The translations under genes were made by a program, and so were the position numbers. Source: Zootoca vivipara (lineage: Eukaryota). From it: a stretch of 64,000 nucleotides of DNA. This document shows positions 13,449-63,175 of this stretch, piece after piece (position 1 is the first letter of the stretch; each line of letters begins with the position of its first letter). Under the pieces are notes generated by a model. It was not told the DNA's origin and did not search any database. It saw only the letters and a list, made by a program, of their open reading frames with translations. The stretch is from contig NC_083277.1 of the NCBI RefSeq assembly GCF_963506605.1, forward strand, positions 17,608,001 to 17,672,000. The letters run 5' to 3'.

Positions 13449-13678
13449 CGGAACTTGCCTACAAGCAAATTATCCTAATTTGCATAGGATTTTTATGTTT
13501 GGAAAATCCACATCACTGAGGGCAAGGAAGGAGGAGGAAAAAGAGATGGAACATGTTGTGGCCTCCCCTAACACCCTTTTATTTCTCCCCACTTGTGCAG
13601 GTCCATGGTGGTATTGTGACGCCCATCAGAGGGGAAAGCGAGCACGAGAAGACAGGGTGGGGCCTGCGCCTGTGAAGG

Positions 13679-22863: not shown

Positions 22864-22952
22864 CCTTCGATAGCTCAGCTGGTAGAGCGGAGGACTGTAG
22901 AATGCATAAGAGAGTCATCCTTAGGTCGCTGGTTCGATTCCGGCTCGAAGGA
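22864..22952 (+). tRNA. tRNA-Tyr(GTA) with 16-nt intron (22901-22916)
   Basis: CCTTCGATAGCTCAGCTGGTAGAGCGGAGGACTGTAG-[aatgcataagagagtc]-ATCCTTAGGTCGCTGGTTCGATTCCGGCTCGAAGGA is the canonical vertebrate tRNA-Tyr; a T-run Pol III terminator follows. Confidence 0.97.
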
Positions 22953-24115
22953 CATTGTGTTTTTTTCCCTTTTCTATTATAAATGTCCCACCAAATTTCA
23001 GATGCATTCTCAATTTAATTCACAGGTAATCAGAGTGCACTGGAGGCTGAGGGCATCAATCTCCTCCCCCCCAAAAAAGAGGCCCCGCCACTGGAATGCA
23101 TTTTCTTTTAAAGGTGTTACGACCAGAGAACCTGGTACAGTATACAGTTAGGCTCCGCTGTGTCAGATCTCACATGTTTCTCGGGCAATACTAGACAGAC
23201 AGACAAATAGATAATGGAAGTTTTAATCTGTTTCTCTGCTTTCTGATCGTGGACTTGGCTTGGGTTGCACGTGTGAGCTTTGACTGCAATCCTGTATTTA
23301 CTTGGGAAGATGTTCGTTGAACTAATGGGTGTTACTCGAGAGTAGGCATGCACAGGATCGCGCTGTTTGTCTTCCTTTAAAAAAAAAAAAAGTACTGTAA
23401 CTCCAAATCCCAAGATCGGGTAATAATACCGTTAGTGGCACAATCTAAAAGGTCACAAAAGCATGGCAAGCTTTCCGAGTCTGCAAAACGCTGCAGAACG
23501 CAAAGGATCGGGCAAGAAGGGTAACCGCAACAATGATGGAGAGGGTCTGTTATTAGGCTGCACCTGGAATGAATTTCCTTACGTAAAAACAGTACGGGGT
23601 AGGAATAGAACTTCTGGGGAAATGCTTAAGTACGGAACTGGAACTAAGCTCTGCGATTGGCTCGTTGAAATTGTAAAGAGGTCACACTATTGGGTGCAAA
23701 ATCCTATGGAAGCAGCGAGCGCTATTGGTTGGTCTGTTGACTTGGGCCACCCCATTGGCTACTACTTTTTAAAGTTAGGCATCCCACTTTCTGCTTTTTT
23801 CTCTTTAGCCTTGACTCTCTGCTCATCCGCTTTGAACACATGGAACCGAAAATGCCATTTTTTTCTTGTTAGCACACGTTGGAGAAGCCACAGAGATCTC
23901 ACTGAGTAACAAGGCACAGAATTCTAGAACAGCTGTTGATCACTGTGGACTAGAATCTTGTCCTGAAGTGATTAGGAAAAATACAACGCCGTCTTATATA
24001 CTGGACCTTGGTCCGCCCAGCTCAGCGTTGTCCACACTGTCTGGCAGCAGCTACCGGTATCTCTCTCAGCCCTCACTGGAAATGCCGACCTTCGGCCTTT
24101 CCGCAAAAGGTAATG

Positions 24116-24204
24116 TCCTTCGAGCCGGAATCGAACCAGCGACCTAAGGATGACTTTCTTATGCATTCTACAGTCCTCCGCTCTACCAGCTGAGCTATCG
24201 AAGG
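24116..24204 (-). tRNA. tRNA-Tyr(GTA) with 16-nt intron
   Basis: Mature sequence identical to the 22864 copy; intron aatgcataagaaagtc differs by 1 nt; TTTT downstream on the minus strand. Confidence 0.97.
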
Positions 24205-27745: not shown

Positions 27746-28429
27746 TCCCAGGTAAACCTGCAAAGGGCAGCAGCAATCCTGCATGTTTACTCAGAGGTAA
27801 ACCCTACCAAGCATCTTAGTAAACATGTATGGAATTGCAGCCTGCAGATCCCATCTTATACAGACATCCTGGAGACAAAATCACATTGAATTCAACGGGG
27901 CTGACTTCCGAGTAGCCATGCATAGGCTTGCACAACAAATCTATTTCAAAATGTTTGTTCATTATTTTCCCATGTGATTTATACACTGCTTCATTGCAAA
28001 ACAAAGAAACAACACACTCAAAGCGGTTTACAAAACAGGACAAAACAATAAAATTATCAATAAGGAAAAGTTACAATATTTTTATTACATATTTTGTGGG
28101 GTTTTTTTCCAATATTGAATATTGTGTGTGTGAACGACCCTGAGATCTGCGGGTGGATGGCCATATACAAAATAAATTTATAGAATAACTCCTCCCTCCC
28201 CCCCAAAATTTAAACAGTAGACTAAAAACGGATTAAAACTTGCATCAACTTTCTAAACATCTGCCGAAACAAAAGCGTTCCTTCCAGGCTCCATAAAGCC
28301 TCCAGGAACAAAATCACAACTTAAAACAAACAAACAAATACCCCCACAATCAGCCATGCAAATTTGGCCTCTGAGCTCTGGGTAAAATATATATGTATTT
28401 TGAAACCCCCATCGCATCCACACCCCCTC

Positions 28430-29120
28430 CTTTCCAAGGCGTTGGTCGCTGCTTGCTCCTCTCGGCATCTGCACTACAAACACAAACCGGTTCCAAAACT
28501 AGTTCAGCTAGTCCGGGTCCGCTCTCTCCCAGGGAACTCTGGGAGTTGTAGTTCTGGCGGGGAACAGAGAGACTCCGGCGAAGAGAGGCGCGGCCTCTGG
28601 CGGAACTACAGTACCCGGGCTGCCTTGCAAGGGAAGCCACGACAGCTCCGAGTGCCTGGGTCTTCTTTTTTTCCATGTTTCCCCGCTCGGTACCGCGAAG
28701 TGTGTGGACGTGCTGGCGAGTGTCCTCCGCCTCCTTTCCTCGGAAGCAGCAGCCGGAGCCATTGCCACCGAGGCTGCCTCCTCCTCGCCGCGTTACAAAC
28801 GCGCTCCAGGATCGCGGAGGCTTTGCAGACGCGTCACTTTTGCAGAAACCAAACACCCAGCAGGTAGGAAGGTAAAAAAAGGGAAAAGGTGCGTCTCTAG
28901 GACCTGACCGGAGTTGGGCGAAGTGTGTGAGTCATTCTGGCAGGTCGGGGTGGCCCTGGAAGTGCATCAGAGTTTGGGGTGCTCTCCAGAATAATGCGAG
29001 TAGAGACCCCCCCTAACTCCCGTGATCGCGCGTTCTCACATGCTTTTTTATGCTTCCGCGCTGTTCCTGCTTCTCTTGCAGGTCTTGGGGCTTGGGAGTG
29101 GGTGTGGGTGTGCGGTGGAT
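28430..29120 (+). promoter_or_regulatory. CpG-island promoter and candidate first exon(s) of the KRAB-B/Myb-SANT gene
   Basis: CpG-dense; ZNF143/THAP11-type motif ACTACAACTCCCAG (minus strand, 28539-28552) and ACTACAGTACCC (28605); donor CAG/gtagga after 28863; acceptor before 29082. Confidence 0.65.
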
Positions 29121-30104
29121 CGGGCGAGGAAACAGCAGAAACTTTGCAGAAAGAGAAATCCCCCCCCAATAATGATTGCTAGAAATCCAGAAACAGAGGT
29201 TTCTGCCTCCCACTGAAACACAAGAAGTGGAGAAGGCGATTAGGGAGCTGAGATCCTCCCCCCTCTCCTGCTAAGAACGACTTGTCTGGGCTTAAGGTAG
29301 GGCTGGGGAAAGTAGGATGGTGGTCCGTGCTGGCCGACGTTTTCCCTGGGGCTGTGTAAGCGCAACATGATGGAACTCAGTGGAACTTGTTTCTGAGAAG
29401 ACAGCAATAAACTGGTGGGAGGCTGGGGGCGGGGGGGGGTGTTGTTGTTCCTGTTTATGCCTGCATAAATCCACCCGGATGAGGAAGAGAAGGTTGAGAA
29501 GTCCTGGGCAAGAAGCGAGGTGCTTCTACCCCTGGTTTCTTCAAATTCCCTAAAGAAAATTGAGATCAGTACCGCCACTCTCACTGAAACTCCAATGTCT
29601 TTCTCGTTTTTCAGTCCTGGGGTCCTCAGTTGACACCCTCACCCCTGCGTCCCTCTGTGTGTGGCCTCAGCTGCACAATATTATTATTATTACTGTATTA
29701 TTATTATTTACCTGCCCTTCACACCATGGTCCCAGGGTGGGTTTCATCATTAAAGCGTAACATAAAAACTTACAATCAAGAGAGGTCAATATACACCTCT
29801 GGGGTCAAAAGCTAGGATAAAGAGTCTTCACAGCACTTTAAACAATCATGGCTCCCCCCCCCCAGAATTCTGGGAGTTGTAGTTTGTTAAGGGTGCTGGA
29901 AGTGGTTAGGAGAACCCTGTCCCCCTCTTAGAGCTACGATTCCCAGAGTGGTTTAACAATCAGTTCCTCTTCCTAGGAACCTCTGCGAGCTGAAGCTCTG
30001 TGAGGGGAATAGGGGTCTCCTTCAACAGCTCTCAGCACCCATAACAAACTACAGTTCCCAGGATTCTTTAGCCATGGCTGTTTGTATGGTATGATACTGT
30101 CCAC

Positions 30105-30520
30105 AAACAACAATATTCTGGAGATCCCGAGCCATAAGGTGGCTAGATTGGCCTCAACTAGGGCCAGGGCCTTTTCAGTATTGGCCCCAACTTGGTGGAA
30201 CGCTCTTTCACAGGAGACCAGGGCCCTGCGGGATTTGTCATCTTTCCGCAGGGCCTGCAAGACAGAGCTGTTCCGCCTGGCCTTTGGGTTGGATTCAGTC
30301 TGATCCCTGTGTTTTCCTCCCTCGTGGTTTGGATTTATGGACTACTTAAAATGAGGCTGCATTTTAAATTTTAAATTTTAATATTGTATTTTAATCTGTA
30401 TTTTAATTAATTGTTTTCTTTTCTTTTATGTCTTATTGTAATTTTATTGGTGTTAGCCGCCCTGAGCCTGGTTTTGACTGGGGAGGGCGGGGTATAAATA
30501 CAAATAATTTATTATTATTA
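30105..30520 (+). mobile_element. L2-clade LINE 3' end
   Basis: RARAFSVLAPTWWNALSQETRALRDLSSFRRACKTELFRLAF followed by an AT-rich 3' UTR and (TTA)n. Confidence 0.75.
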
Positions 30521-31004
30521 TTATTATTCAAATTTATACACCACCTTTCATCCAAAAATCTCAGGGCGATTCACAAGATAATGTATAGGGCCCGAGTTCT
30601 GATTTTTATTTTTAGCATGTCACTACTTTAATTATTTACTTTTAAGAGAGAGTTGCAGGTGGCATGAGAGAGGCAGTGTTCTCCAGGTGTGTGTGCGTGC
30701 ATTGTTAGTATCCCCAGGTACGTTATGCTACATTTGCTACTTTGATTTCCTTCTGTCTCGGGACAGTTTCCCAAGCGGTGGCTCTTATTTTTAAACAAAT
30801 CAACAAGGCATTTGGAATCTGGTTTCAGCCACCTTCCTCTCTAGGCAGACACGACTTGCCCATCGTACTCCAAAAAGCATCAGGCAAGATTCCTGGCTGG
30901 GCTTCCAATTAAGATCTCACCTGTTTTAAAGCAGCTGGATTGGTTGCCGGTTCATTTCCAGGCCCAATATAAGGTGCTCAAAATAAGCCCTAAATGCCTT
31001 AGAC

Positions 31005-31427
31005 CAGGCATCCCCAAACTGCGGCCCTCCAGATGTTTTGGCCTACAACTCCCATGATCCCTAGCTAACAGGACCAGTGGTCAGGGATGATGGGAATTGT
31101 AGTCCAAAACATCTGGAGGGCCAAAGTTTGGGGATGCCTGCCTTAGACCCCCCCCCAACTATCTGGAAGACCTTCCTTTCCTGGAGTCCTTCCCGGGTGC
31201 TGTGATAGACAGAAGGGCCCCTCCTGGCAGTTCCTCCACCCTCAGTGGGTGGCAGCCTGGGAGAGGGCATTCTCGGTGGCAACCTCTAAGTCAGGCATAT
31301 GCAAACTCCGGCCCTCCAGATGTTTGGGACTACAATTCTCATCATCCCTAGCTAACAGGACCAGGGGTCAGGGATGATGGGAATTGTAGTTCCAAACATC
31401 TGGAGGGCCGGAGTTTGCCTATGCCTG
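31005..31427. mobile_element. Two ~135-bp hAT-type MITEs (31005-31140, 31292-31427)
   Basis: Same family as 20572; TSD ccttagac (perfect) and ctctaagt/ctctacgt. Confidence 0.85.
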
Positions 31428-31977
31428 CTCTACGTTGTGGGGGTCTCTCCCCACAGAGTGGCACCTCTACTGCACAGCTTCTGGTGGTGGCTAAAGAAAT
31501 AGCTCTCTACCCTTGCTTTTGAGGTGTACATTTTTAGCACCTGCCTTATTTTTGTGACTATAAAACTGTTTTTAATATTGCAGTTTGGTGTTGCAATTCC
31601 CCAGGACCTTAGGGTGAAGGGTGGGCAAGGAATAATAAGACCAACCACAGAGACAGGCTCTCAGCACAGAAAATAATCTCTCCTGAGATTCAGAGGTGGC
31701 ATCTTAGAGCCATTGTCGTTGCTCAACGTATGCATACTCGCGGTCTCTTTCCCCAACCCCACCAGCAGCTGGGATCTCTGTTCAAACTAGTTTTGCGGGT
31801 TTTGATGGTGCTTTTGACGCAGGACCCAGGGAGGAAAAAGCCACCCTGAAATTGCCAGGGTCGGGTGTCCCGGAAGGCTCAGAGCAGCTTCCGAAACCTG
31901 GTGGCTCTCTCAGGGGTGCTGTAGTTGCATCCCTGTATTGTCGATCCTGTATGGAGCAGTGGGGTTGGGCTAGAGCA

Positions 31978-32051
31978 GACCATGGCTGATTATCGGTTAA
32001 ACATCTGGCAAGTTTAGATGACAGATGTTTAACCGATAATCAGCCATGGTC
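31978..32051. repeat. Perfect 30-bp inverted repeat with 14-nt loop
   Basis: gaccatggctgattatcggttaaacatctg (31978-32007) and its exact reverse complement (32022-32051). Confidence 0.9.
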
Positions 32052-32201
32052 AGTCCAGGAGAAGATGGCAAGTATCAGGCAGGAAGTTCCAAGGACAATC
32101 AATATATTTTGATTTTGGGAATGATTCACGTTCTTATGTAGCTGCATCATTTTATACTTTCTGGCTGTCCCATGATCATATTATAAAGCAGTTGTGTTCT
32201 G

Positions 32202-32571
32202 CAGGTGAAACTCGGAAAATTAGAATATCGTCGAAAAGTGCATTTATCTCAGTAATGCAACTTAAAAGGTGAAACCAATATATGAGATAGATGCATGACA
32301 TGCAAAGCAAGATATGTCAAGCCTTTATTTGTTGTAATTGTAATTATTTGTCGTTAGGCGGGTCAATTATAAATGGAATGTAATTAATGAAATGTAATAG
32401 CGATGTTTATTTTTGTATTACCGTATTGTAACTACAGGTATTTGTTTTATTACTGTGGAATTTCCAAAAGAAAGTATTTGTAAAAATTAATAATAATAAT
32501 AATAATAATAAGTTGCATTACTGAAATAAATGCACTTTTCGATGATATTCTAATTTTCCAAGTTTCACCTG
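32202..32571. mobile_element. Tc1/mariner non-autonomous element
   Basis: Long TIR caggtgaaactcggaaaattagaatatcgtcgaaaagtgcattta.. and TA at the right end; second copy at 38251 in opposite orientation. Confidence 0.8.
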
Positions 32572-33155
32572 TATGTTATAAATCAAACGCTGCTAGAAGT
32601 TGTTGCATTCCCCCCTCCCCAATGTATTTCTTAGCAATAAAATACTTTGTGGTATTTGCAAGCAAATTTTTATTCTGAAAGTGTGGCCCAGAGAAAAAAG
32701 TTTCAGAACCACTGGTCTAAAGCAACTAATATAAACAATGTGATAAACATCAATAGTTAAAAATGGCACCAATTCACAGACAGTGACACCTGGTATAATA
32801 GAACGAGCTGTGCAGAGCCAAAGGCTCCAGAAAAAAAATGACAAATTTTAAAGAGAGCTTTGAACATATGGAGTGAGGGGGCAACTCACCACTGCTTCCT
32901 GGAAGGTGATTCCAAGCATATGGAGCATAAAAAGTAAAAGGACCAAGATACGCTAGAGAACAAGAAACTCTTGAATGAGTTAGAAGCACAGAATCAGAAA
33001 GAAAACAGACCAGGCGACCAGGCTTTGGCTTCAACCTTGTTGCGGCATTGAGTGCTCCCAAATGATTCACCTTTTCCTCTGCTTTCCCCCTACATGTCAC
33101 AGTTCCTTGGTAGAAACCGTGGGAAGAGAAATTTGACCCCGTGTATTTCTTCTGG

Positions 33156-33281
33156 ATGGTGGTGACTCTTGAGCCCAACGGTGGTGGGACTTCATCAGGG
33201 AGCTGTTTTGGACCAGAACCAAAGAGCCCTGCGCTGGGGGTGTTGTCATGCAGAACAACTTTGCAAGGATGGCCTTGCTGG
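33156..33281 (+). pseudogene. Degenerate (frameshifted) KRAB-A exon whose 3' end can supply the start codon
   Basis: Three frames give VTLE.. / LDQNQRAL / VMQNNFARMALL(G), matching KRAB-A VTFEDV..LDPAQRALY.DVM.ENY..L.SLG. It ends at a phase-1 donor G/gtaaga, 162 nt before a KRAB-B exon. The expected acceptor reads ..ttctgg rather than ..cag. Confidence 0.6.
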
Positions 33282-33613
33282 GTAAGAACCCCAAATCCTG
33301 CCCCCTCCCCACCCCCAACCTTTCCATCCAGTAATGATGGAATTCTTTTTAGCGTGGACTCTGGAGAACGTCTCCCTAGCCAGTGATGGGTAGAATGGCC
33401 AACTCACCTGGGCCTTGCTGCTCTTCTGCTCCTTCCTGCGCAGGGTTGCCTGTTGAAGAGCCGGAGGTGATCTGCAAGATTGAGTCCGAGGAAGAGCCGT
33501 GGATCCCAAGCGAGCAAGCCGCGAGAGGGAGGCGGATCCTGCCTGGAAGCAGGAAGTTAGGTGAGGGGCCAACTCCACCTGGAAGGGCTAGGGCATGCCT
33601 TCTAACCAGGAAT

Positions 33614-33664
<51 letters not shown>

Positions 33665-36600
33665 ATTTTTATTAAACTTTCTGTTTTACAATTTAGAGAA
33701 TACTCATTTAAGCAACCTGAAAATGTCAGTGGTTTCCCTTCTTTTCTTTCCATGGTTCATTTTGCATATCATAAATCCCTGCATATTTTACATAAACTAA
33801 ACCATTCAGTATTCCATTATTACATGCACCAAAACTGGTTTACACTGTTGAATTTATCTTAATGCTGCCAACCTTTTCAACCTTTTCCCCCATACATTCA
33901 ATAAACATTTTCCAATCTTTAAACATATGTTCTTCTTGTTCTCTTATGTTAGGTCCGCAAGCTGCACTTATTCCATCAGTTTAACCTTTTTTGACACCTA
34001 GGAATTTCCGTCTGGATTATCCCCAGCAAAAAGGACTCTGGTTTCTTTTTTTAAAAAAGTACTTTGAAACATTTTTTCCCCCAATTCATTATGAATTATT
34101 TCCCAATGCTCTTTTACCATTTTACAGTTCCACCACATATGAAAGAATGTTCCCTCAACCTCAATGCAGGGAAGTCTATTCTCCCTCTGTCTGCCCAGAG
34201 TTTGAATGAGCAGGTTACGCTCACCCAGCGTTGAGGAAGATGCACCCTCCTTATTCAAAGCATCAAAGAAGAATCAAAGAATCGTAGAGTTTGAAGGAAC
34301 CACGAGGGTCATCTAGTCCAACCCCATGCAATGCATGAATCTCTTGCCCAATGTAGGGCTCGAACCCACGACCCTGAGATTAACAGTCTCATGCTCTCCC
34401 AACTGAGCTATCCCAGGGGATTCGTGCATTGTGTGCCTCAAGCCTGGCTGCACAGCAGAGTCCACTTGAGGAATGCTGAAAACCTTCTAGTTTCTTAGTT
34501 TCAGATCTAGCGCAGTCCTTATTTTTGTTGAAACAAAATAAAAAAAATCCTTCCAGTAGCACCTTAGAGACCAACTAAGTTTGTCATTGGTATGAGCTTT
34601 CGTGTGCATGCACACTCCTTCAGATTTCGTGCATGCACACAAAAGCTCATACCAATGACAAACTTAGTTGGTCTCTAAGGTGCTACTGGAAGGATTTTTT
34701 TTATTTTGTTTTGAGTACGGCAGACCAACATGGCTACCTACCTGTAACTTATTTTTGTTGATACCTCCTTCTGTTTCAAGAGTTTAAAAATTATTGTACT
34801 GTAATTGTGATGCTTCAGGACACACATGCCCAAAAAAAAAGAATTAAATTTTCTCAGCTCTTTTCTCCCCACCCTGTCCTGTCTGAGTTAACCTTTCTCT
34901 CTCTTTCTCTCTTCACCTCCCTCCCACTTGGCTTCACCTCCATCCCACTTGGCTTTCCAGCTGCCGAAACGCCCGAGCCGGCCATTGCCCCCTACAGGCA
35001 GTATCGCGGCACCACGTGGACCTACCCCGAGATCATAGACCTGCTGGTCATTTGGCGCGAGCGGGAGATCCAGCAGGAGCTGCAGCGGAGCCACCGGAAC
35101 ATCGAGACTTTCCAAGTGGTGGCCAGCAAGATGGCGCAGAGAGGCCACAAGCGCTCTGCCCTGGAGTGCCGCTCCAAGATCAAGACTCTGAAGAGGGACT
35201 ACCGGATAGCCAAGGCCAACAACTCCCCGGGGAAAGGACATTTGGCCTGGCTCTTCTACGACCAGCTCGACCACCTGTTGGCCAACGAGGCGGACCTCTC
35301 ACCCCCAGAGGCGCTGCCCGCCTTGAGCCGCCGCGGGGCGTCTGTCGCCGACTCGATGTCTCAGTGCTCCACCGAGGAGGAAGCTGTGGCGGAGGGGGCC
35401 AAAGCGGGCAGCCAGGAAACGCTGCCTCTAAGGACGCGCTCGCCTCCCCAGGTCCCCAGCCTGGGGGGTGGCTTCCCTATACTGTACATAAAGGAGGAAG
35501 CCCCCGACGAAATGCCCGTGACATCTCCCATGGGTCAGTAGCGGCATTTGGTGTCTGAGGAGACCCCTGTGGAATGAGGTTTTCGAAATAGCCTTTTTTT
35601 TTAAAAAAAAAAGGAATCCCTGGGAGACAGTGTCTTTCATTTTATTTTCTTGCATTTAGATTCCGCCTTTTCTTCCAAGAAGGCTGAGGTAGGGTACATG
35701 GTTGTCCTCCTCATTTAATCCCCCACAACAACCCTGCGAAGTGTCTAAAGGTCCTTTACCTTTACCTTTTACCATGAGATGTAGTGACAGCCGGCCAGCT
35801 TAGATGAGTTTACTGGATAAATTCACGGAGGATAAAAAAAAAAACACCAGTGACTACCTGCCACAATGGCTCCGTAATACCTGCAGCGTTACAGACAGTG
35901 AGTCCTATCCAAAGTAGCAATCAAACCTTGCAAGAGCAGAGCTACTTCCGCTTGTACAGTGAGACTTCCCACCCCCACAGTGAGCTCCCTAAATCTGTTC
36001 TGCGGTTGCCTCCGTGCCTCCAGAACAGATTCGGGGAGGGCATGAAGCATGTGCACGTCCTTCCTCTCATGCAGTTGTTTAGTTATGGGATGTTTAGTCA
36101 GAATCTCCTTTCTTGCAACTTGGTTTTGGTCCTACCCTCTAAATTGCGAGGAAAAAAAAGCTTGCTCCATCGTCCATGTGACAGCCCTTGAGATATTTGA
36201 AGATGGATATCCTATCTCTTCTTTTCCAGGGTAAACATACCCATCTCCTTCAACTGGTCCTCATAAGGCTTGGTTGCCTTTGGCTGCCAGGATTAGTGCT
36301 TGAAGACAACAACACTGTTATATGATGTTCTTGAACTCGATAATCAAAATGCAAGGGCTGGGTTAATGCCCAAGGGACTGCGGTGTGTTTTGTATATAAT
36401 GATCATTTCATTCTGATGCTTTCTGCATTCACACATCTGCCCCAAGCATTTCCTCAGCCCATTCTGCGCAACAACATTGTGTAGCCTGCAAGTGGTTTGT
36501 GATACAATAGACCAGAAGCTTGGGGGGGGGGGCTAGGATTGTTGCTGTGGACAAAGGCCAGCTATGCTCCTGAAATTAATCAATGTTATGTCTGTCTTCA

Positions 36601-37892
36601 GGAATAGCAGAAGCCAGCAGTCCGGCTCCACCTCTGCTGTCTACTCCCTGCGATAAACCGGGCAGCTCTGCCTCAACAGTAGGTAAGAACAGGACAAAAC
36701 AATTACTGTAGATAAGAACTGCCAGTTCCTGAGGTTAATCGTTTGAATGACTGGATGTAAATTAGATGCTCACCTGGGGCAAGGAAGAATCCTTTCTAAT
36801 AGGTGGAGTTAGGTTAATAGGTAGCCTTACTAATTTATAAATCACTTTTTACATACTGTCTCAAGGCAATTTGCAGGCAGGCCACAGAAGGAGCGGAACA
36901 CACAGACACACACGCAAAAGCTATTAAAAGCAGCACCAAAAGCCAACGTTTGAAAAAGTTGACGTTTTCATTTTGTATTGTTAAACCTAAGGCCGTTTCT
37001 GTGTTGAAACAAATTTGTCTTCAGTGTTTCCAGAAATGTTATTCGTTTCCAGAAAGTACTGGTAGCGAGTGCTTGTCTCATGTCAACAGGGACGCTGTTC
37101 GAGGGAACAGCCTTGCAGGTTGGTCTTGCAGCCCACAATTTGCAGCAAGGGATGGATAGGAGCCAACATGTTTGTCTTTACTTCGCACTGTGGCTCAGTT
37201 GAACCAACCCATAGTAGAGAGAGCTTACAGATCAATTTTTTAAAAAATCAAGCTATACCAAAAAATGACACAACACAAAAGGATAATAGGAGGAGAAAGG
37301 AGGGGGGGGGAGAAGCAAACTCATGCACTGCTTCTTAAAGTTAACACTGAAAATCCGAATCATGTTGACTCAGAAAGTCCCACTTTGTTCAATGGGACTT
37401 GCTGTTGAGGAAGTGAGTTCTAAGCATAGTTTTGTTTCGTGCTTTTCAGACGGGGCCATAACCCCCTCCCCAAGTCCCTTGCCTGACCCCGCCAGGTCGT
37501 ACGCCGCAGAGCGCCTCGCCAACATCCGGAAGCGGAAGAGGAAAAACAGGCAGGATCTGGCGCTGGAAATCACCCACGCGGCTGACAGGAGGGTGCAGAC
37601 GGCCACCGACCGGATCCTGGCGGCCCTGGGCGAGTACGCGAAGGCCGATCTGGAGGAGCGGGAGCGGGACCGCGTAGACACTGAACAGATCATTGCGCTC
37701 ATGAACCGCCAGACGGAACTGCTAGAGTCGCTCGTGCGAAAGCAGGCAGAGGCGCAGGCTCCCCCGGCCCCGGCCTTAACCCGGCAGGCCCGGCTACCCC
37801 GGCTCGGGCAGCCCGGTCACGCGGCAGACGCTTCTCCCTTGCGCTTGGGGTCCGCCAGGCGGCCCATGGCGCGGGCGAGGTACCGGAGGTGA
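33248..37892 (+). CDS. KRAB-B-like + Myb/SANT (trihelix, MSANTD/ZSCAN29-type) protein derived from a Harbinger Myb ORF; ~415 aa; exons 33248-33281, 33444-33560, 34961-35533, 36602-36682, 37450-37892
   Basis: All introns are GT-AG and phase 1, and the frame stays open across them (1248 nt). Exon 2 GLPVEEPEVICKIESEEEPW is KRAB-B-like. Exon 3 WTYPEIIDLLVIW..F..VASKM..RGHKRSALECRSKIKTLKRDY is Myb_DNA-bind_4-like. The last exon has basic NLS-like RKRKRKNR and a coiled-coil-like segment. Start codon uncertain (33248 or 33269). Confidence 0.8.
33665..34185 (-). mobile_element. L1-clade LINE 3' fragment (intronic), next to (TC)n
   Basis: Minus-strand CIEVEGTFFHMWWNCKMVKEHWE resembles the L1 ORF2 C-terminal Cys/His motif. 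Confidence 0.65.
34270..34418 (-). mobile_element. tRNA-Lys-derived SINE head with CR1-like tail
   Basis: Minus strand tagctcagttgggagagcatgagactgttaatctcagggtcgtgggttcgagccctacattgggc resembles tRNA-Lys(CTT) with a broken acceptor stem, fused to ggttggactagatgaccc..ctacgattc. Confidence 0.7.
34531..34747. mobile_element. Penelope-like element remnant, inverted terminal duplication (~85-bp arms)
   Basis: ccttccagtagcaccttagagaccaactaagtttgtcattggtatgagctt is repeated in inverse orientation; flanking direct repeat cttatttttgttga. Confidence 0.65.
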
Positions 37893-38250
37893 CTCCCAAG
37901 ACGGCTGTGGCGGCGATGTGGCTGTGGCGGCACTCTTTGGCTGTAGTTCCATTAGCGTGCGGGGCATCCGGGCTACGTTTGTAACGGGTTGTAGTTTTCT
38001 TTTTCAGGAATTTAAAAAACTTTTTTTGCAGTTAATGATTTTGTAATTAGGAAGGGGGGCGGGATAAAAGTTGGAGGGTGGGGTTCTTTTCCCCCTACTC
38101 TTTTTTCTCCCCACATTACTAGTTCTGGTAAATAAGGGGTGGGAGGAAAATGTTGTAGCACAGAGACTCACGTGCCACTCAACACAAAACCATTTTGTTC
38201 GATCTTCATAGTTCTCTGTATACACACAAACACACACCCATATATATATA

Positions 38251-38608
38251 CAGGTGAAACTCTGAAAAATAAAATATTGTCGAAAAGTGCATTTATTTCA
38301 GTAATGCAACTTTTTATTTTTTTATTTTTCTTTTAATTTTTACAAATGCTTTCTTTTGGAAATTCCACAGTAATAAAACATATAGATACAATAATACAAA
38401 ATAAACATCGCTATAACATTTCATTAATTACATTCCATTTATAATTGACCCTCCTAACGAGAAATAATTACAATTACAACAAATAAAGGCTTGACATATC
38501 TTGCTTTGCATGTTATGCATCTATGCCATATATTGGTTTCACATTTAAGTTGCATTACTGAAATAAATGCACTTTTTTACGATATTCTAATTTTCCAAGC
38601 TTCACCTG
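38251..38608. mobile_element. Tc1/mariner non-autonomous element (same family as 32202)
   Basis: caggtgaaact..agcttcacctg TIRs inside a TA-rich tract; internal sequence is the reverse complement of the 32202 copy. Confidence 0.8.
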
Positions 38609-38659
38609 TGTATGTATATATATGTGTGTGTGTGTGTCACATATATGGGACCTTAGGTT

Positions 38660-42329: not shown

Positions 42330-43022
42330 AACAACTCCCAGAAGCAGGCGGGCTTTAGGACCCTGAGGGGAGCTGACACGTAAGAGATCTTCGGGCGCAG
42401 CCGCCACAGGAAGAGGATCTCCTCGGCCCCGTGGCTCTCGGAGGAGGGTGTGCTGCCGATCCTGGATTCGTGTCTCTTCTTGCACGCTGCACGCGCGTTT
42501 CCTGCGTGCATTTGCAGAATCCGCGAGACCTCCAGGAAGTGGGGGATCCCAGGAGATCCCAGTCTTCTCTGCTGCTTACAAGGCGGAGGAATCGTGCGGG
42601 GGGTGGGCGGATTTAAGAAACCCAACTTTGCCCGGAGAGCCGAGCCGATCCTGGGGGTGAATCTGAGATCTTTTCATCTCCCAGATGGAGCGACCAGGAT
42701 GATTCCTGTGGTCCGCAGCTTGCGATAAAGGAGCCTGGCGCCTCCCTGAATGCAAACGGGAGGATGGGATAAGGAAGACGCCGACAAGGCTGGATCAAGT
42801 GGGAATCCGTAGGCGGAAGGTGGCTCGAGATCTGGATGGTTTGCAGTAGATCGGCAAGGGCTTCCAGCGCTCGGTCGTCCCATCAGCAGTGAAGAAATGA
42901 TATTCTCCACCTAAACATAAATTCCTGAACTGCGGGGGGGAGGGGGATTCCTGCGTTAAATTCAGCTCCGGCTCAATTCCTTTCTGGCCCTGGAAATAAA
43001 TTATTGCTGCTCAGAACACAAG
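42330..43022 (+). promoter_or_regulatory. CpG-rich candidate promoter/first exon of the Harbinger-transposase gene
   Basis: Local CpG enrichment not explained by a repeat, GC boxes, donor AAG/gtaact after 43022. Confidence 0.45.
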
Positions 43023-44307: not shown

Positions 44308-44983
44308 TACCTGCCTCACTAAGCCAATGGCTCATCCAATGGCCTGTGGGGAGGTTTGCCAGCAGGCTGGAGCACAACAGTTGCCCCGCTGCACTTCCCA
44401 GTGACTGGTAGTCAGAGGCATGCAATGACACTCGGCACCTTTAACAAACTACATTTCCCAGAATTCTTCGGGGGGAAGCCATTAATCTTTTTTTGAACGG
44501 AATGATACTGCTTTAAATGTACAGTACAGATGGGGATGTGGTGTTGCTGTGGGGTCTGGTGGGCATTAAAATAGCGGATAAACCACAATGCCTGGCACTG
44601 TTCAGAGCGCTGGGTAGATCTGCTCTGATGCCCAAGGATGTGAGGCACATTGCCCCTGCTCAGTATGGTCATACAGAGTATGTGAGTGTCTCCAGTCTCT
44701 TGATGATTTTGGTTCCATTTTTCTGGAGCTTTTTCAGCTCTACCAGGAAACCAAGCTGTAATTCCTGCATTCGAATCATAGAGTTGGAAAGGGACCACAC
44801 GGGTCATCTAGTCCAACCCCCTGCAATGCAGGATTCTTTTGCTCGAACCCACGACCCTGAGATTGAGAATCTCATGCTCCACCAACTGGATGACGTTTGA
44901 GGTCCCTTCCAACTCTACAATCCTATGAAAATCTGTTCCAGACCCTACTCTGCTCAGCACATGCTTGGATGATTATCATCTTT

Positions 44984-45035
<52 letters not shown>

Positions 45036-45450
45036 GATACACCAAAAGGGGGGGGGACAAAAATACAAATCTAAACAGTGATAAAGACAGTATGAATTAC
45101 AAATCAATAAAGCAAAAAGTGGTCCTTGAACTATAGACCCGACCTCCCGTCTATTCCTTATTTCAGTTATATATTACAGTATTTGTTGCCAGTACCCACT
45201 TTTATCATAGATTAACTAATTATTGGTTTATCTTAGGTCTCATATCTTTCTTAAAGCTACTACTGAAATTATTCAGATGCTGGGAGGATGATTATAATCT
45301 TTGGAGCTTCTCATCTTGTAAAGGCAGCATCTTGGCGCAGTAGGAGCGGCAGGCCTTGTTGGGATCTGCCAGCCCCTGGCGGTTGCCTTTGTTCTGGCTT
45401 CTCTTTCCTGATTAGGTTCTCCTTTCTTAAAGCCTAAGGTGAGGTTGAGG

Positions 45451-48400
45451 ATGGAGAGAGAAGATGAAACGTGGAACCTCCAGGACCCTGAGAAAGAGGA
45501 GATGCCAAGGAATAGCAGCTCAGGTAAGGACTCGGACAGAAAAACTAAACAGAAGAGTATTTCAATGGCAACCATGTGAGTCATAAGTTTGATTTCATCA
45601 GGTGGGAGGTGGATGTGCTTTGCTGGCTTTTGCATCCCTTCTGTCTGGTGTGCTTTTGAAGTACAGTCGTACCTCGGAAGTCGAACAGAATCCGCTCCAT
45701 AAGTCAGTTCGACTTCCAAAACGTTTGAAAACCAAGGCGTGGCTTCCAGTTGGCTGCAGGAAGCTCCTGCCGCCAATCAGAAGCCGCGTCGGACGTTCGG
45801 GTTCCAAAGAATGTTTGCAATCCGGAACTATCACTTCCGGGTTTGCAGCGTTCGGGAGGCGTTCAGAAGGCGTTCGTCAACCAAGGTATGACTGTATATC
45901 TAAACTAGGTATCCTCTGCCCACAATAAGTTGCTCGTTTCACAAAGCAGGAGAATAAGCTAGCGTTTTTGTTTATATTTGTAACTCTCGCATAGCTATTG
46001 AGAGACTTAAAAGATGCGTGCCTAGGTACATGTTCATAGAATTAAAAGAGGGTAGGGATTTTTTCTTTCTTTTTTTAGTTTATTAGATTTGAGAATGAGG
46101 GTGTGTGACCAAGAAGAGCCTTCAAGGGCTGCTGTGAAGGGTGTGCATGCGAAACTGATAAACAAGGCAGTTTCCACTTCCTTCTCAGGCTTCCAAGAAC
46201 ATACCAGTCCGGCCCTAGCTTGTGCAAACTCTTGTAGTGCAAACTCTGGGATGTTTTCAGCTTTTGAGAGATTAAACCAACATGTCAAGGTCGGTTTTTA
46301 CTCTCAACGGCTGGCAAAACACAAAAGAATTTCAGCATTTCCTGCTACAAGCAGGAAATCTCTCTCTTTTTAATTCTATCCTATTCAATGTAAAACAACA
46401 ACAAAATCCTGGACCTACAGAAGTAGCCTGGCCTTTTCCATGACTGCAAGTTTCAAACGTGGAAATTCTCCTTGTACAGGAGGAAGCATTCAAATATTTG
46501 GGAGGGAGGGCAGGATCCAGGGCCTGAGCTTAACTGGGGGGGAAATTGAGATAGGGCTGAAAAGTAGAAGCATAGCTGGATGGCACTGTGCTACAGTTAG
46601 AAAATTGGGGGGGGGCAGCAGGGGACAAAGAAGGGAGAGTGGTGGATAGGTGGCAAAAGAGTGGGAATAGGGTGAGGAGCAACAATAGGTTATTTTCTGA
46701 TTGATTAAGATCAGGCATCCCCAGACTTCGGCCCTCCAGATGTTTTGGACTAAATAAATTTAAGGAACTGCAGAAAGAGGGAAAAGGAAGTCGAGTTTTG
46801 AAATGTTAGAAGAATTGTAAAATTATTGAAATGTCAAAAACTGAAAATCATTTTTTAAAAACCATGCACTGCGTGAAAAAAACCCTTTCTTTTAGAGGCC
46901 CCACCTAATCAGCAGGATAAGGTCCAGTTGTAGAATGAGGCATAGCTGCCAAGTTTTCCCTTTTCTCGCGAGGAAGCCTATTCAGCATAAGGGAAAATCC
47001 CTTAAAATAAGGGATAACTTGGCAGCTATGGAATGAGGTGACCATTTCTATTGAGTTGCAATATAAATAATAATAATATAAATAAAAATAATAATATAAA
47101 TAAACAAATGCCACTGAACACTGAACCTGGCCTAAAATGCAAGTAAAGTCCATTTCTGGAAATGAGGAGGTCTGTAGCTTAGCCAGAGAGAGGCTACTTG
47201 GCCTGTACCTTCAGCCTCAAGCATCTCCTGCTCAGGCCAAAGCTGGTGTGAGGCTCTTCCCCACTGAGGCTCCTGGGACCCACTGCCTAAAAGACATGGA
47301 GCTCCATCGCCAGAATCTCCCCTAGTACAAAACAGCTAATTCCTGGTGTTCCCAAAACAGTCTCTCTTGTCTTTCCTCTTCTCCAGAAAGCGATCAGATG
47401 GTGTCAGCAGCTCTCGCCGCCGCCACAGCTGCCGTGGCTGCCATCACGACCGTCGTGGGGGTCCAGTCGCGCATCTTTGCACGGCTGGCAACACGCCGGA
47501 AGCTTCTGCCGCGAGGGCGCGACGACCTGGCCGAGCTGGAGGAGATGGTGGAGAACGCTGCATCGGTGCGCCTCCGAGCGGTGGTGGAGTCGAGCATCGA
47601 CTCTCTGAAGGCTATGATGTGCTCGTGCCTCTTCCAGTCGCCGGCTGTCCTGGCTGGCCTGATTGACGAGCTCTACATCATGGAGAGGGCCTTCTGGGTG
47701 CAGCCGGGCCGCTCCGAATGGTGGGAGAAAGTGGTCCTGCCCCACTGGGACGACCATCTCTGGCGAGAGAACTTCCGGATGAGCAGGAGGACCTTCACGG
47801 AGCTGTGCGATCGGCTGAGGCCCGTCCTCGAGCGGCAGACCACCAACATGCGCGCTCCGATCACCGTCGAGAAGCAGCTGGCCATCGCCGTCTGGAAGCT
47901 GGCCACCCCGGATAGCTATCGCTCGGTGGCCGAGTGCTTTGGGGTGGGCCGCTCCACGGTCTCCAGGATCGTCATGGAAGTCTGCCAAGCGCTCTACGAC
48001 GTCTACCACCACGTGGTCCAGCTGGCCGGTGCCCAGGAGGTGATGAAAGGCTTCGCTGCCAAGGGCTTCCCTCACTGCATCGGGGTCCTCGACGCCACCC
48101 ACATCCCCATCATCGCCCCGGCGCACAGAGCCACCGAGTACATCAACAGCAAAGGCTACTACTCCATGGTCCTGCAGGTTCTGGTGGACCACAGAGGCAG
48201 GTTCACGGACGTCTATGCAGGGCGCTCCGGGAAGCTTCCCGGCGCCCGGATTTTCCGTGGGTCGCCCATCTTCCGCGCCATGAACCAAGGCACATTTGGT
48301 CCCAGCGTGACCATGGACATGGGGGGCGAGCAGCTGAAGCCGGTGATCCTCGGAGACCCCGCTTACCCGCTGCTGGCCTGGCTGATGACTCCGTACGGCG

Positions 48401-48753
48401 GGCACTTGGATGCCCGCCAACAGTGGTTCAACAACGCCCTCGCCAGCTGCCACGCGGTGGCAGAGTCCGCCTTCGAGCGCCTTCGGGGCCGCTGGCGCTG
48501 CCTGCTCTCCCGCCTGGACGTGAGGGAGCGCTACGCCCCCCGGGTCATTGTGGCCTGCTGCATCCTGCACAACATTTGCGAGACCAGAGGGGAGCCTCTC
48601 CAGGAAGGCTGGCAGGAAGTGGTCAGATCCGTCTCGCGGTCTTACCAGCAGCCAGAAAGGCAGCCAGTGTACGCAGCCAACCCCCGAGCGCGGGAGATCA
48701 GGGATCTTTTGAGCACGTACATGGAAAGGAAAGAGCAGGGGAAGTCGGACTGA
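45451..48753 (+). CDS. KRAB-B-like + PIF/Harbinger transposase-derived protein (HARBI1/ALP1-like, DDE_Tnp_4); ~479 aa; exon 45416-45523 spliced to 47387-48753
   Basis: Intact 451-codon ORF (47398-48753) with WRENFRMSRRTF, HTH YRSVAECFGVGRSTV, GVLDATHIPI, YINSKGYYS, ILGDPAYPL, ESAFERLRGRWRCL, ACCILHNICE. The upstream 108-nt phase-1 exon (GSPFLKPKVRLRMEREDETWNLQDPEKEEMPRNSSS) joins in frame via the acceptor at 47385-47386 and contains ATG 45451 in strong context (aggATGG). The transposase call is solid; the 5' exon is a model. Confidence 0.85.
46941..47030. mobile_element. 90-bp hAT-type MITE, copy 2
   Basis: Identical to 10479-10568; 8-bp TSD gaatgagg. Confidence 0.9.
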
Positions 48754-54247: not shown

Positions 54248-54724
54248 TTACTGAACTGCAACGGGCGCGGTGCTGGCCTTAAGGGCCACTTTGGTGCCTT
54301 TGGCCGCCTTGGTCAGGGGCTTGGACGCGGCCTTGGCGCTGGCCGCGCTATGCAGAGCTTCGGTCTTCTTGGGCAGCAAGACGGCGTGGATGTTGGGCAA
54401 GACTCCGCCCTGCGCGATGGTCACTCCGCCCAGCAGCTTGTTCAACTCCTCGTCGTTGCGCACCGCCAGCTGCAGGTGCCGAGGGACGATGCGGCTCTTC
54501 TTGTTGTCCCTGGCTGCGTTGCCGGCCAGCTCCAGGATTTCTGCACTGAGGTACTCGAGCACAGCGGCCAAATAAACGGGCGCTCCGCCGCCGATGCGCT
54601 CGGCGTAGTTTCCCTTGCGCAACAGCCGATGGACTCTGCCCACGGGAAACTGCAGGCCGGCCCTGGAAGAGCGGGACTTGGCCTTGGCCCGCGCCTTGCC
54701 GCCTGTCTTGCCGCGACCGGACAT
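54248..54724 (-). CDS. Histone H2A, long-tailed variant, copy 1 (158 aa)
   Basis: [45 protein letters not shown] plus tail [37 protein letters not shown]; TATAAAA and CCAAT boxes upstream; intronless. Confidence 0.96.
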
Positions 54725-57700
54725 CTTCAAAACCTCCTGACTTCTATCTCGACCAAAGAACGAAAGGAATGCAGGTGCTTGGAGTGCTTGGAGCCTTTTA
54801 TACGTTTCTTGACCTAGCTGCGATTGGTCGAAGACGAACAGGCCAATAAAAGAAAGGATTCTATTTCTAAACCAATGGGCGACGAGTGCGCGCGGGTGTG
54901 GTCCTGGGAGAGGGGAACGGTATATATTTATTGTAGAAGAAAAGAACAAATACTGTCTATCTCTGCTTTCTGTTCACCCGACCCTTCCCGTACAGTTTTC
55001 TAATGGAAATATTGATGCTCGTGGGTTGTTGTGTTTTTTGGGGTTTTTTTACCCATACGATGTTTTGTGAGAACGGGATATTTTGCTAGTTTCTCCCGTC
55101 TATACAGTTTCTAGCAGATTCCTTTGCTTCTACATTTCCAGCGCGTGAAAGCTACAACGGTCCGCCAAGAAACCTGTTACGCAGTTTACGTTAGACAATT
55201 CCCTGCGATACTTCGTAAAAGTGCACCTCTAACCTCTAGTCTAGGACTAAACAGGCCCAGGCTGCGGTAGAGAAAGCAGAGGGGGGCGGGGTTTGATGCT
55301 CCTGAGCAGTTGGCGGAAATGGCTGCCAAGCGCTTCAGATTTTCCCGCCTTTTCCCCTCCCCGGCACCTCGCTCGCCTGCCTGAGGGAAATGTTGAGCCG
55401 CTCAAAAAGACACTTATTAGAGACGTTGTAAATGTAATTAGTCTTGACGTTCACATAGACAAAAGAAGGTTACCAATACCAACAAATAACATCTCATTTT
55501 AATCTTTTCGTTTAAAATATAATCCCTGTGCGACATAGTTACCTTTCATGAACTCAAATTATATTTCAAAAACTGTTGGTTTTCCGTAATAATTACCCAT
55601 ATGTATAATCTTATAAGGGGATGAGGAGCCACCTTCTCCTCACAGCAGTCTTCATGGCAACTTTTTTTTATAAAAAAACAACTAAGAAGTATATTCCGGC
55701 AGCAGCTTTTTTTGCACTGTAGTCCCACATTTATCTTACATTTTTTTAATTTACAGATGTTAAGGATTTACAGATTGTGTGTCCTCTTACCTGTGAGTAA
55801 GCCACTGAATATAGTGGGACACACATAGGATATACCACTTCTTCCAGGTATCCGAGGAAATAGGAACATCATACTGAACTGCGTTTGTGTTATATTTTGG
55901 GTGCAGTGCTTCATTTTTAGATTTGATTCTATTTTTAAAAATGTGCACAGAAATATTCTGGGCATTTGTATTAGGTGGCAAATAAATTGAAATAATAATA
56001 ATATTACTCTGTATGTATATAGTGCTTCTGATTTGGTTATCTCACAAGCGCAGCCTTAAATTGTTCCTGGTTAGTTCACTGAGAGTCTGAAACCTGGAAA
56101 AAGACTTCAGATCTATGTCATTTTATTCATTCATTCATTCATTCATTTGATTTATATACTGCCCTTCATCATAAGATCTAAAGGCGGTTCTTGCCAACTA
56201 ATGTCAGAGAGGCAGATTGAGCATGATTTTTGTTAATTTCTGTAGCAGTCAAAGGTTTTACAGTAGCAGCAAAACAATTTTAGGAATTTCTGCATTCACT
56301 TCACATCAGGACCGGACTGAGATGTCATCCACTGTATTTTCCAGACAATTCCAACATTTTTTGTCGTTTAGTCGTGTCCGATTCTTCGTGACCCCATGGA
56401 CCATAGCACGCCAGGCACTCCTGTCTTCCACTGCCTCCCGCAGTTTGGTCAGACTCATGTTCATAGCTTCGAGAACACTGTCCAACCATCTCGTCCTCTG
56501 TCGTCCCCTTCTCCCCAAACCCAACATCTGGGTCTTTATTAGCCATCGCCATAAAGAGTCCCTAGCTATTATTGTATTCATATTACTATCCACTATCAAG
56601 TCTATTTCATGTACCAATTGCCAAATCCGCACAATACCATAGAACCACAGAACATCCTGGCTTCCTTTCACCTTTCAATCATCCCTTTTTTTTTGTAAAC
56701 ATTTTTGACACCACACAAAATCCTTCTTCTGTTCCTGGATGTTCAAATTAACGCCTGAAGTTTTGTTGGCAGATTCCGCCCCGCCCCCCTTTGGTACTTA
56801 TCCCGTCCTTTACTCAGTGGGAACAGTCTGGCTTAAATACATGCATGCATTGACCTTTGTTACTAACTTTTAGACCAATCTGCAGAACCTACTTTTTAAA
56901 AATCCAATGTGTATTAATCATCAGGATGAATAGTAAACAGAAACCGGAGTTTGTGTATGTGCATAAAAAGGCTGACATCAAGGCACCTTTCCCCGCCTCT
57001 CCCTTCGCCTTTGCTGTTGTTACAGAAGAGCTTTGTAAACACAGCTTGTCCCTTCGTTTTGTGACATTTTGGCTTCTCCTAATAAATGCATTGTGGAATC
57101 ATGCACTGAAACGTGCAAAGCTGTGGCAAAACAAAATCAATTTCAAAGAATCCACGATCCCCGCGTCCATACCACACATACCAGATGACGCATCTCAAGT
57201 ATGTTCTCGCTAGGGAAACTTTTTTTTGTTTTGCTCAGACGTCTTTTGCATTGGTAGTCGCAGTTATAAATTGCCTCCAGGTTTTATTTTATCTTTCCTT
57301 TCCTGATTCCACTTTGGTACGCAAATATATTTGCCCTTCAAACAGCGCGGGGAACACAAGATTGATCGGAGTAAAGATAATAATCTCCTATCTGAGATTA
57401 TAAATCACTGCGAACCACCTCCAGTGCGCGGAAGCAAGAAGAAACAGAAAATTAAAAGGATTGGTTTGGGTTGCTGCGTGAAAACAGCCAATGAGGCAGT
57501 CTACATTAAATATATTATAAATTAATATGATATCCAGCTTTCACGCGTTGGAAATGTATAACCAAAGGAATCGGTTAGAACCTCTATACACAGGGGAAAC
57601 TTGCAAAATAGGCCCGTTCTCACAAAACATCGTAGGGGTAAAAACAAAAACAAAAAACAACCCACGAGCATCAATATTTCCATTAGAAACCATTCGGGAA

Positions 57701-57959
57701 GGGTCTAACGAATAGAAAGCAGAGAGAGACAGTATTTGTCCTTTCTTCTACAATAAATATATACCGTTCCCCTCTCCCAGGACCACACCCGCGCGCACTC
57801 GTCTCCCATTGGTTTAGAAATAGAATCCTTTTTTCTATTGGCCTGTATGTCGTCGGCCAATCGCAGCTAGGTCAAGAAACGTATAAAAGGCTCCAAGCAC
57901 TCCAAGCACCTGCATTCCTTTCGTTCTTTGGTCGAGATAGAAGTCAGGAGGTTTTGAAG

Positions 57960-63101: not shown

Positions 63102-63117
63102 GGCTCTGAAAAGAGCC
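63102..63117 (-). terminator. Histone 3' stem-loop (H2A copy 3)
   Basis: GGCTCTTTTCAGAGCC on the minus strand. Confidence 0.95.
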
Positions 63118-63175
63118 TTTGGGTCTGGGTATTTTGTCAGCGGCCCTGGTCCGGGCTATTGGCCTTTTGGCCTCA

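Follow-up and report, generated by a model that had tools for sequence, protein, structure and literature searches.

Structure of the Myb gene

The window, that is, the whole stretch of 64,000 nucleotides (nt) that was analyzed (G000:C2:17608001-17672000; genome size 1.44 Gb), carried a Myb/SANT gene led by the remains of KRAB exons and, downstream on the same strand, a Harbinger-type transposase gene led by a KRAB-B-like exon of its own. In the Myb gene, the KRAB-A exon was broken across three reading frames, the KRAB-B exon retained an open frame, and the encoded protein was conserved from geckos to iguanians. The Myb exon was 100% identical to Zootoca vivipara XP_034962895.1. An original prediction, made from the DNA letters, had proposed at 33156-35533 that a KRAB zinc-finger gene captured the Myb open reading frame (ORF) of a transposon and later lost its repressor function. 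The gene was larger than that interval, with exon 1 at about 28673-28863, exon 2 from 33103, and coding sequence continuing through 36602-36682 and 37450-37892. The proposed capture was supported, and it appears to have taken up the whole second Harbinger ORF and not the Myb domain alone.

A CpG island at 28500-28999 (GC 0.59, CpG observed/expected 0.80), where RNA depth began, was the likely promoter. All exons lay on the plus strand. Exon 1 (28673-28863, 5' end approximate) was joined in RNA to exon 2 (33103-33281), which opened at a new acceptor whose AG (33101-33102) lay ahead of the KRAB-A relic. Exon 3 (33444-33560, 117 nt, phase 1 at both ends) carried KRAB-B, and exon 4 (34961-35533) carried an acidic linker and the Myb/SANT trihelix domain (PF13837, E=3.5e-17; residues 69-156, about 35014-35277). 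Exon 5 (36602-36682, 81 nt) was skipped in some annotated isoforms. The coding part of exon 6 (37450-37892) contained an RKRKRK basic motif (residues 295-300) within a long predicted helix (residues 282-370 in AlphaFold), and poly(A)-type hexamers occurred from 38268. All junctions of the gene were in phase 1, in agreement with the predicted in-phase splicing into the trihelix exon, and the coding exons (33248-33281, 33444-33560, 34961-35533, 36602-36682 and 37450-37892) gave 415 residues identical to RefSeq P0001, in the order KRAB-A tail, KRAB-B, Myb/SANT, linker, basic motif and long helix. A Pfam scan of the gene returned Myb families only and no zinc fingers. In the computed spliced mRNA, the upstream ATG of exon 1 (28675) opened an upstream ORF (uORF) of 83 residues.

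One repeat (about 89% alike) was present at 32202-32583 and 38222-38637 in opposite orientation, flanking the coding exons of the Myb gene; by the RNA reads, this repeat is common.

KRAB-A relic and start codon

The KRAB-A relic occupied 33156-33281 (126-127 nt). Its three KRAB-A peptides each lay in another frame (VTLE from 33162, LDQNQRAL from 33208, and VMQNNFARMALLG from 33245), and the spacings between these motifs were 46 and 37 nt, compared to 51 and 33 nt in 18/18 intact KRAB-A exons that matched all three motifs (from 29 used); net shifts were therefore -5 and +4 nt. A KRAB-A DNA profile built from 29/30 intact loci of the same genome (one was left out because its donor was not found) matched 33196-33288 with nhmmer (E=1e-9; runner-up in the window, E=0.13). 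The mean global score of the whole relic was 66, compared to 18.6 ± 4.8 in 200 shuffles (maximum 31). The 3' half scored above 300/300 shuffles, and the 5' half was weak, with 11/300 shuffles scoring as high. An AG stood 127 nt before the donor in 27/29 intact KRAB-A exons, and the relic had no AG at its old start; the donor, G|GTAAG directly after 33281, was intact and in phase 1. The relic across three frames and its donor were thus both borne out.

Pfam PF01352 matched no frame of the relic and neither KRAB-B exon, and was precomputed in 0/20 Myb-gene homologue matches. The proposed check with KRAB profiles thus gave no match with Pfam and clear matches with the profiles from the genome's own KRAB exons. 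A DNA search of the genome with both KRAB exons returned the locus itself only.

Translation likely starts at 33248, at a Met corresponding to KRAB-A position 32 of 42 (coding part of exon 2, 33248-33281), as the spliced model matching P0001 and the orthologues indicate: 16/19 squamate orthologue rows began with MQ(N/S), at the Met of KRAB-A 'VMxxNY'. The predicted reuse of an ATG in the KRAB-A tail accords with this. The translated part of KRAB-A would be its last 11 residues only, and 31/42 positions would be untranslated. The ATG at 33156 in the relic opened a computed out-of-frame uORF of 50 residues that overlapped the main start. A Varanus gene model read the relic off-frame, in a gap-free alignment to the same frame as here (19/32 residues), and the last frameshift hence predates the Varanus split. 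The shared Met start of 16/19 orthologue rows likewise argues that the KRAB-A break is old and not an assembly error, and RNA reads had no indel in the exons; the frameshifts are real, as had been supposed. Comparison of orthologues gave the shared start, but no orthologue with intact KRAB-A occurred among the named matches, where tuatara, turtles and crocodilians were sought and most of the 150 listed rows were unnamed.

KRAB-B exon and RNA

A KRAB-B profile built from the 9/30 loci with a KRAB-B exon in reach matched 33424-33511 (E=3.4e-6), and at the protein level 0/200 shuffles scored as high as exon 33444-33560. A profile of orthologue N-termini aligned to the KRAB A/B junction of ZNF568 (E=0.049). 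The retained 117-nt KRAB-B exon was thus confirmed; of its predicted residue pattern, the 'KP' of the general KRAB-B pattern was 'EP' in this gene.

Three raw RNA runs chosen by species label (X22, X23 and X24; about 6% of the reads in each) were mapped on 28400-33700, together with one contig set (X2). Joint 28863>33103 was crossed by 7 reads in X23 and 11 reads in X24, and joint 33281>33444, which the original prediction had singled out, by 11 and 26 reads, respectively. A single X2 contig contained both joints and extended past 33560. First mates were on the minus strand, as predicted for plus-strand RNA. Within exons there were 0/7 indel rows, and none in 33103-33560 at a depth of about 17-39 reads. 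Beyond these joints there were 17 further joints and 511 loose ends, and minor forms, e.g., with KRAB-B skipping, are possible. A Logan-contig protein (P0014) read across joint 33560>34961.

Transcripts skipping 33444-33560, which had been named as evidence against the original prediction, were found in part, as annotated isoforms of Podarcis and Rhineura; the main forms keep KRAB-B, which was present with an open frame in 17/19 orthologue rows. The other two rows were Podarcis isoforms jumping from exon 1 to the Myb exon. In Podarcis, an exon-1 ATG was in frame with the isoform that skips both KRAB exons, and in Zootoca the corresponding ATG (28675) was out of frame and opened the uORF.

Protein and conservation

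Of the 20 matches at E<=1e-10, 19 were orthologue rows, from geckos, skinks, a cordylid, lacertids, an amphisbaenian, anguimorphs and iguanians. Mean identity, calculated with 16 orthologue rows (3 rows with different N-termini omitted), was 95.6% for the Myb domain, 88.1% for the C-terminal block (residues 281-376), and 68% for the KRAB-A tail. The KRAB-B core was 84.4% identical, compared to 66.7% for the tail of the same exon and 57.6% for the linker. The gene was single copy, and its best paralogue in the genome was 57% identical. AlphaFold predicted a helical Myb region and gave residues 1-70 low confidence (pLDDT under 50, predicted disordered). A fold search with the low-confidence full-length model (mean pLDDT 53.9) returned nothing at E<=0.001.

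The Myb domain weakly matched the sequence of the GT-1 structure (E=0.078), and the C-terminus weakly matched the C-termini of turtle Harbinger-type Myb proteins (E about 1e-6 to 1e-3, in a set of 400). An exact 12-mer test for terminal inverted repeats found only A/T-rich simple matches. Two orthologues carried the NCBI label 'MSANTD7'.

Neighboring transposase gene

The original prediction had missed the neighboring transposase gene, with its own KRAB-B-like exon. The transposase exon (47387-48753, plus strand; PF13359, DDE_Tnp_4, E=8.4e-32) lay 10 kb downstream of the Myb gene. The KRAB-B-like exon (45416-45523, plus strand, 108 nt) was the second-best KRAB-B profile match of the window (E=7.6e-4); 0/200 shuffles scored as high, with a small margin (9.2 vs. 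7.6 bits). The ATG at 45451 within this exon started a transposase of 479 residues identical to RefSeq P0349, and most transposase orthologues shared an ME(R/K)(E/G)E leader. One annotated isoform had an upstream exon at 42750-42809 (plus strand; tblastn of P0050, N-terminus of P0352), within a CpG island at 42500-42999 (CpG observed/expected 0.71). A KRAB-A relic suspected by eye before the KRAB-B-like exon, near 45277-45320, was not supported, and none was detected upstream.

Transposase identity was 80-96% in 12 squamate matches and about 50% in turtle relatives. The transposase had no match to the basic pattern present as RKRKRK in the Myb protein. Its presumably catalytic D, D and E residues were present in Zootoca. 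The HD motif (48232-48255) was replaced in both lacertid rows only (2/12 squamate rows), and the presumed third acidic residue (E) was altered in 4/12 squamate rows; because of these changes, cutting is probably dispensable. The transposase was single copy in the genome and had no termini that could be found, so that the features of an active Harbinger transposon were absent, and the gene pair likely no longer transposes. No solved structure matching the transposase profile was found.

The LOC numbers of the two genes followed each other directly in Zootoca, Anolis carolinensis, Elgaria and Heteronotia, were close in several other species, and were far apart, on contigs of equal length, in Pogona, Hemicordylus and Eublepharis; this gene numbering suggests that the two genes are adjacent across squamates. 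Among 11, the two KRAB-B exons matched each other best. A history in which an entire KRAB-Harbinger unit was duplicated in tandem and then reciprocally lost was not supported, as no leftover transposase or Myb fragments were found. An open frame of 127 residues at 44517-44900, in an intron of the transposase gene, had a weak Gag_p24 match (E=0.045, below the cut-off) and is possibly a retroviral relic.

Paralogues and fusions in reptiles

The genome contained 18 Myb and 15 transposase matches, mostly unlinked. The closest Myb paralogue (G000:C2:8059527-8059404, at 8.06 Mb; L050/L051) had an open, heavily degenerate KRAB-A exon of 124 nt spliced to the Myb exon, with no KRAB-B detected and with orthologues from gecko to iguanians. 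The second closest, on C8, had no KRAB exon within 19 kb and was still conserved. In the Myb tree, which used 61/176 domain rows, these two paralogues and the gene of the locus formed one clade (98/90), and the stem branch of the locus gene was 0.53, compared to 0.04-0.10 for the two sister paralogue groups.

A distant paralogue (G000:C2:8403273-8403163, at 8.40 Mb; L056/L057) had a KRAB-A exon of 111 nt that was out of frame by a 16-nt deletion, and its annotated protein (P0205/P0335) began at the same KRAB-A Met and retained KRAB-B. This paralogue grouped in another supported clade (95/89), and a forced clade with the locus gene was not rejected (p-AU 0.247); its restart at the KRAB-A Met is likely a convergent case. 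At G000:C12:59501446-59512411 (L060/L061), an intact KRAB-A exon, a few C2H2 fingers and a Myb ORF were followed 2 kb on by a Harbinger transposase, all on one strand; a relative of this transposase (P0085) had no GD motif.

Intact KRAB-Myb fusions occurred in alligator, Anolis sagrei, tortoise and Rhineura, together with RING-Myb fusions (Varanus, pythons), SCAN-Myb fusions, KRAB with 7-8 tandem Myb domains (alligator, Anolis), and a KRAB-transposase fusion in the turtle Emydura (fusion proteins P0164, P0165, P0197, P0203, P0220, P0276, P0063, P0204 and P0212). These reptile fusions are a wide, little-described set, and KRAB capture of Harbinger-type ORFs thus looks recurrent in reptiles. Since Pfam-based surveys miss fusions such as those of the locus, which had no PF01352 match, counts of reptile KRAB-transposon fusions are probably too low.

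Interpretation

The preferred reading, with a probability of roughly 0.55, is that the locus holds a gene shared across squamates, made of the leading exons of a KRAB gene spliced to a Harbinger-like Myb ORF, and that its product works with the KRAB-B-led transposase as a TRIM28-independent chromatin regulator. Origin of the gene by capture of KRAB exons is very probable. So, judging from gene structure, is the loss of TRIM28 repression: in the ZNF93 structure, contacts with KAP1/TRIM28 come from KRAB-A residues only (PMC9753469), and because only the last 11 residues of KRAB-A remain, TRIM28 would not be recruited. A working partnership between the Myb protein and the transposase is favored by a modest degree.

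In this scheme, a Harbinger element would have landed among KRAB genes before the divergence of geckos from the remaining squamates, each of its two ORFs then acquiring KRAB exons by splicing in phase 1. KRAB-A would then have decayed, with the new acceptor at 33103 making most of it a 5' leader and an internal Met becoming the start. The Myb domain appears to have changed fast on the squamate stem and then to have frozen, suggesting that its DNA targets are fixed. Import and retention of the transposase may fall to the basic motif and the C-terminal helix, in the manner of NAIF1 with HARBI1; the Myb protein would bind its fixed DNA sites and bring the transposase, itself without a basic motif, to chromatin. 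As an N-terminal module, KRAB-B would be flexible and optional; the two uORFs (28675 and 33156) could keep output low.

Several observations weigh against this reading. Run X22 had no reads on the exons, joint 33560>34961 lay beyond the read-mapped stretch and rests on the RefSeq protein and P0014, and annotated isoforms of Podarcis (P0025, P0027) and Rhineura (P0035, P0036) skip all or most of KRAB-B in frame. No element with termini bearing this Myb family was found; derivation of the Myb reading frame from a Harbinger transposon, which is likely, consequently rests on domain type, C-terminal likeness and the neighboring gene. The two closest Myb paralogues had no transposase within about 10 kb. 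The two KRAB-B exons scored 69 against each other, inside the range of unrelated paralogues (58 ± 21), and no duplicated unique sequence besides KRAB-B linked the two genes, whose shared sequence was repeats only; nor did the trees tie both ORFs to a single Harbinger family. At least 15 members of one transposase cluster were snakes, and no snake was among the 20 or 32 named matches for the Myb gene; the pair may therefore not be obligate.

The snake distribution also fits independent captures by two neighboring KRAB genes, with the same origin of the Myb gene but separate functions, the Myb protein being a stand-alone factor or having another partner. Such independence would account for the lack of duplicated sequence common to both genes, for the CpG island and KRAB-B exon between the two ORFs, which one simple insertion leaves unexplained, and for the mostly unlinked Myb and transposase matches in the genome. 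It is nonetheless doubtful, given that adjacency is kept across squamates by gene numbering, that a second Myb-then-transposase tandem exists on C12 at 59.51 Mb, and that the basic motif is on the Myb protein only. Less probable still is a bolder version of the shared history, in which KRAB exons rewired both Harbinger genes at the squamate base, both genes shed KRAB-A, and KRAB-B alone has a TRIM28-independent function that was selected repeatedly; the distant paralogue at 8.40 Mb, which restarts at that KRAB-A Met after a different deletion and retains KRAB-B, would be another instance. Whether partners or not, the two genes might have taken from KRAB exons no more than a promoter, splice sites and a start codon, the KRAB-derived peptide being inert. 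This view, compatible with either position on the partnership and judged separately, falls somewhat short of even odds. Mutations in KRAB-B barely change KAP1 recruitment (PMC9753469), the N-terminal residues of the Myb protein are predicted disordered, KRAB-B can be skipped in frame, the KRAB-B-derived leader of the transposase drifts freely, and the sister paralogue on C8 is conserved with no KRAB exon nearby; the higher identity of the KRAB-B core than of the linker and exon tail, and its open frame in nearly all orthologue rows, argue instead for a constrained peptide.

Other origins of the gene can be given little weight. The Myb exon might derive by duplication from a SCAN-KRAB-Myb-zinc-finger gene of the ZSCAN20/29 type whose fingers were lost, without a new capture from a transposon. 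KRAB and PF13837 are already combined in such genes, whose names some annotators apply to the orthologues. ZSCAN20, ZSCAN29 and ZKSCAN2 resemble the lizard gene in joining KRAB-family exons to PF13837; they also bear SCAN, Myb domains in tandem and C2H2 fingers, which the lizard gene lacks. In the Myb tree, a distant branch held the SCAN-Myb rows P0256 and P0272 (100/100, length 1.74), the C-terminal block of the lizard gene was common to the KRAB-less C8 paralogue and, weakly, to turtle Myb proteins, and a motif scan found no C2H2 zinc-finger array in 264 kb around the locus, all of which makes this origin very unlikely. ZSCAN20 itself has been flagged as putatively Harbinger-derived (PMC9392472). 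Lowest in probability, and close to negligible, is that KRAB-A is intact in life and broken by assembly error, or that its remnant still recruits TRIM28. Nothing direct spoke for this, and intact KRAB-Myb fusions do exist in other reptiles; the indel-free reads over 33103-33560 refute the assembly error, the off-frame register is the same in Varanus, orthologues from gecko to iguanians begin at the same Met, and most of the KRAB-A positions are untranslated.

Relation to known systems

Each ingredient of the preferred reading has precedent: KRAB capture, Harbinger domestication, adjacent co-domestication, and the Harbinger of this locus. As in the KRAB-transposase fusions KRABINER, KMARD1 and KTIGD1/3 (Cosby et al., bioRxiv 10.1101/2020.05.07.082677), KRAB-gene exons are here spliced in frame to a DNA-transposon-type ORF in a tetrapod and then conserved. 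In those fusions, however, KRAB-A is intact and repressing, whereas here it is broken; the ORF captured here is the Myb partner and not a transposase DNA-binding domain, and KRAB-B leads both ORF types. The main text of that paper contains none of the words 'Harbinger', 'PIF', 'Myb' and 'SANT'; these loci may be listed in its supplementary tables. New repressors are known to arise by KRAB capture of transposon ORFs, and the locus would show a later or alternative outcome, in which the repressor box dies, translation begins at an internal Met, and the 'accessory' B box remains constrained across squamates. It would thereby be a natural test of the role of KRAB-B without KRAB-A.

Harbinger Myb-like proteins bind DNA and import the transposase, NAIF1 doing so for HARBI1 (PMC9392472). 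The pair resembles NAIF1-HARBI1 and MSANTD1-4 in consisting of domesticated Harbinger Myb-like and transposase genes; unlike these pan-vertebrate genes (PMC9392472, in which 'KRAB', 'squamate' and 'lizard' have 0 occurrences), it is squamate-specific, adjacent and KRAB-exon-led. In insects, the PIF pairs APLG/APM, LPLG2/LPM2 and DPLG7/DPM7 are neighboring transposase and Myb/MADF genes with a growing intergenic gap, and often just one of the two proteins carries a nuclear signal (PMC9710019). The basic motif of the Myb protein, with no match in the transposase, parallels that arrangement; in contrast, the insect pairs are without host KRAB exons, and each lizard ORF comes with a separate CpG island and leader exons. 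With this locus, adjacent co-domestication of the two Harbinger genes gains a candidate among vertebrates. By analogy, the functional model proposed for the lizard pair resembles that of plant ALP1/ALP2 and HDP1/HDP2, in which a transposase and Myb pair is reused in chromatin complexes (summarized in PMC9392472); contact with PRC2 or an acetyltransferase is no part of the lizard case as known from sequence and RNA.

No description of KRAB-derived exons on these two genes was found in the literature; the supplements of Cosby et al. and Fig. S3 of the harbiTRIM paper (PMC12262214) may bear on the point.

Genomic setting

The Myb and transposase genes sat between an ORF at 13676-15028, presumably MGAT1 from its sequence, and H2A genes. 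The human interval from MGAT1 to BTNL/TRIM7/TRIM41/RACK1 contains the zinc-finger gene ZFP62, and the two KRAB-led genes may sit at the matching position. No intact KRAB-A exon was found in the 264 kb scanned around the locus.

A TRIM/PRY-SPRY cluster (G000:C2:17675000-17912000) started just beyond the window. The first 57 kb past the window end held five RING ORFs, all but one of them on the minus strand, with PRY matches adjoining. Three RING ORFs, 36-57 kb beyond the window, had starts that agreed with common-lizard TRIM sequences (supplement of PMC12262214), which identifies the locus as the harbiTRIM locus. The Harbinger of that locus was described as intact, transcribed and apparently domesticated, and as the anchor of the locus (PMC12262214, whose main text mentions neither 'KRAB' nor 'Myb' and whose Fig. 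S3 may show more). The locus is the same; what was called an 'intact Harbinger' beside the antiviral harbiTRIM cluster is read here as two spliced host-type genes with no termini found. On the bolder version of the shared history, the pair would be a two-part chromatin regulator, specific to reptiles and bordering that volatile cluster.

Two tRNA genes in inverted orientation, probably intron-containing and with no anticodon assigned, lay at 22864-22953 and 24115-24204. Three near-identical H2A genes on the minus strand (54248-54973, 57687-58433 and 63054-63668) had an unusual Ala/Lys-rich C-terminal tail.

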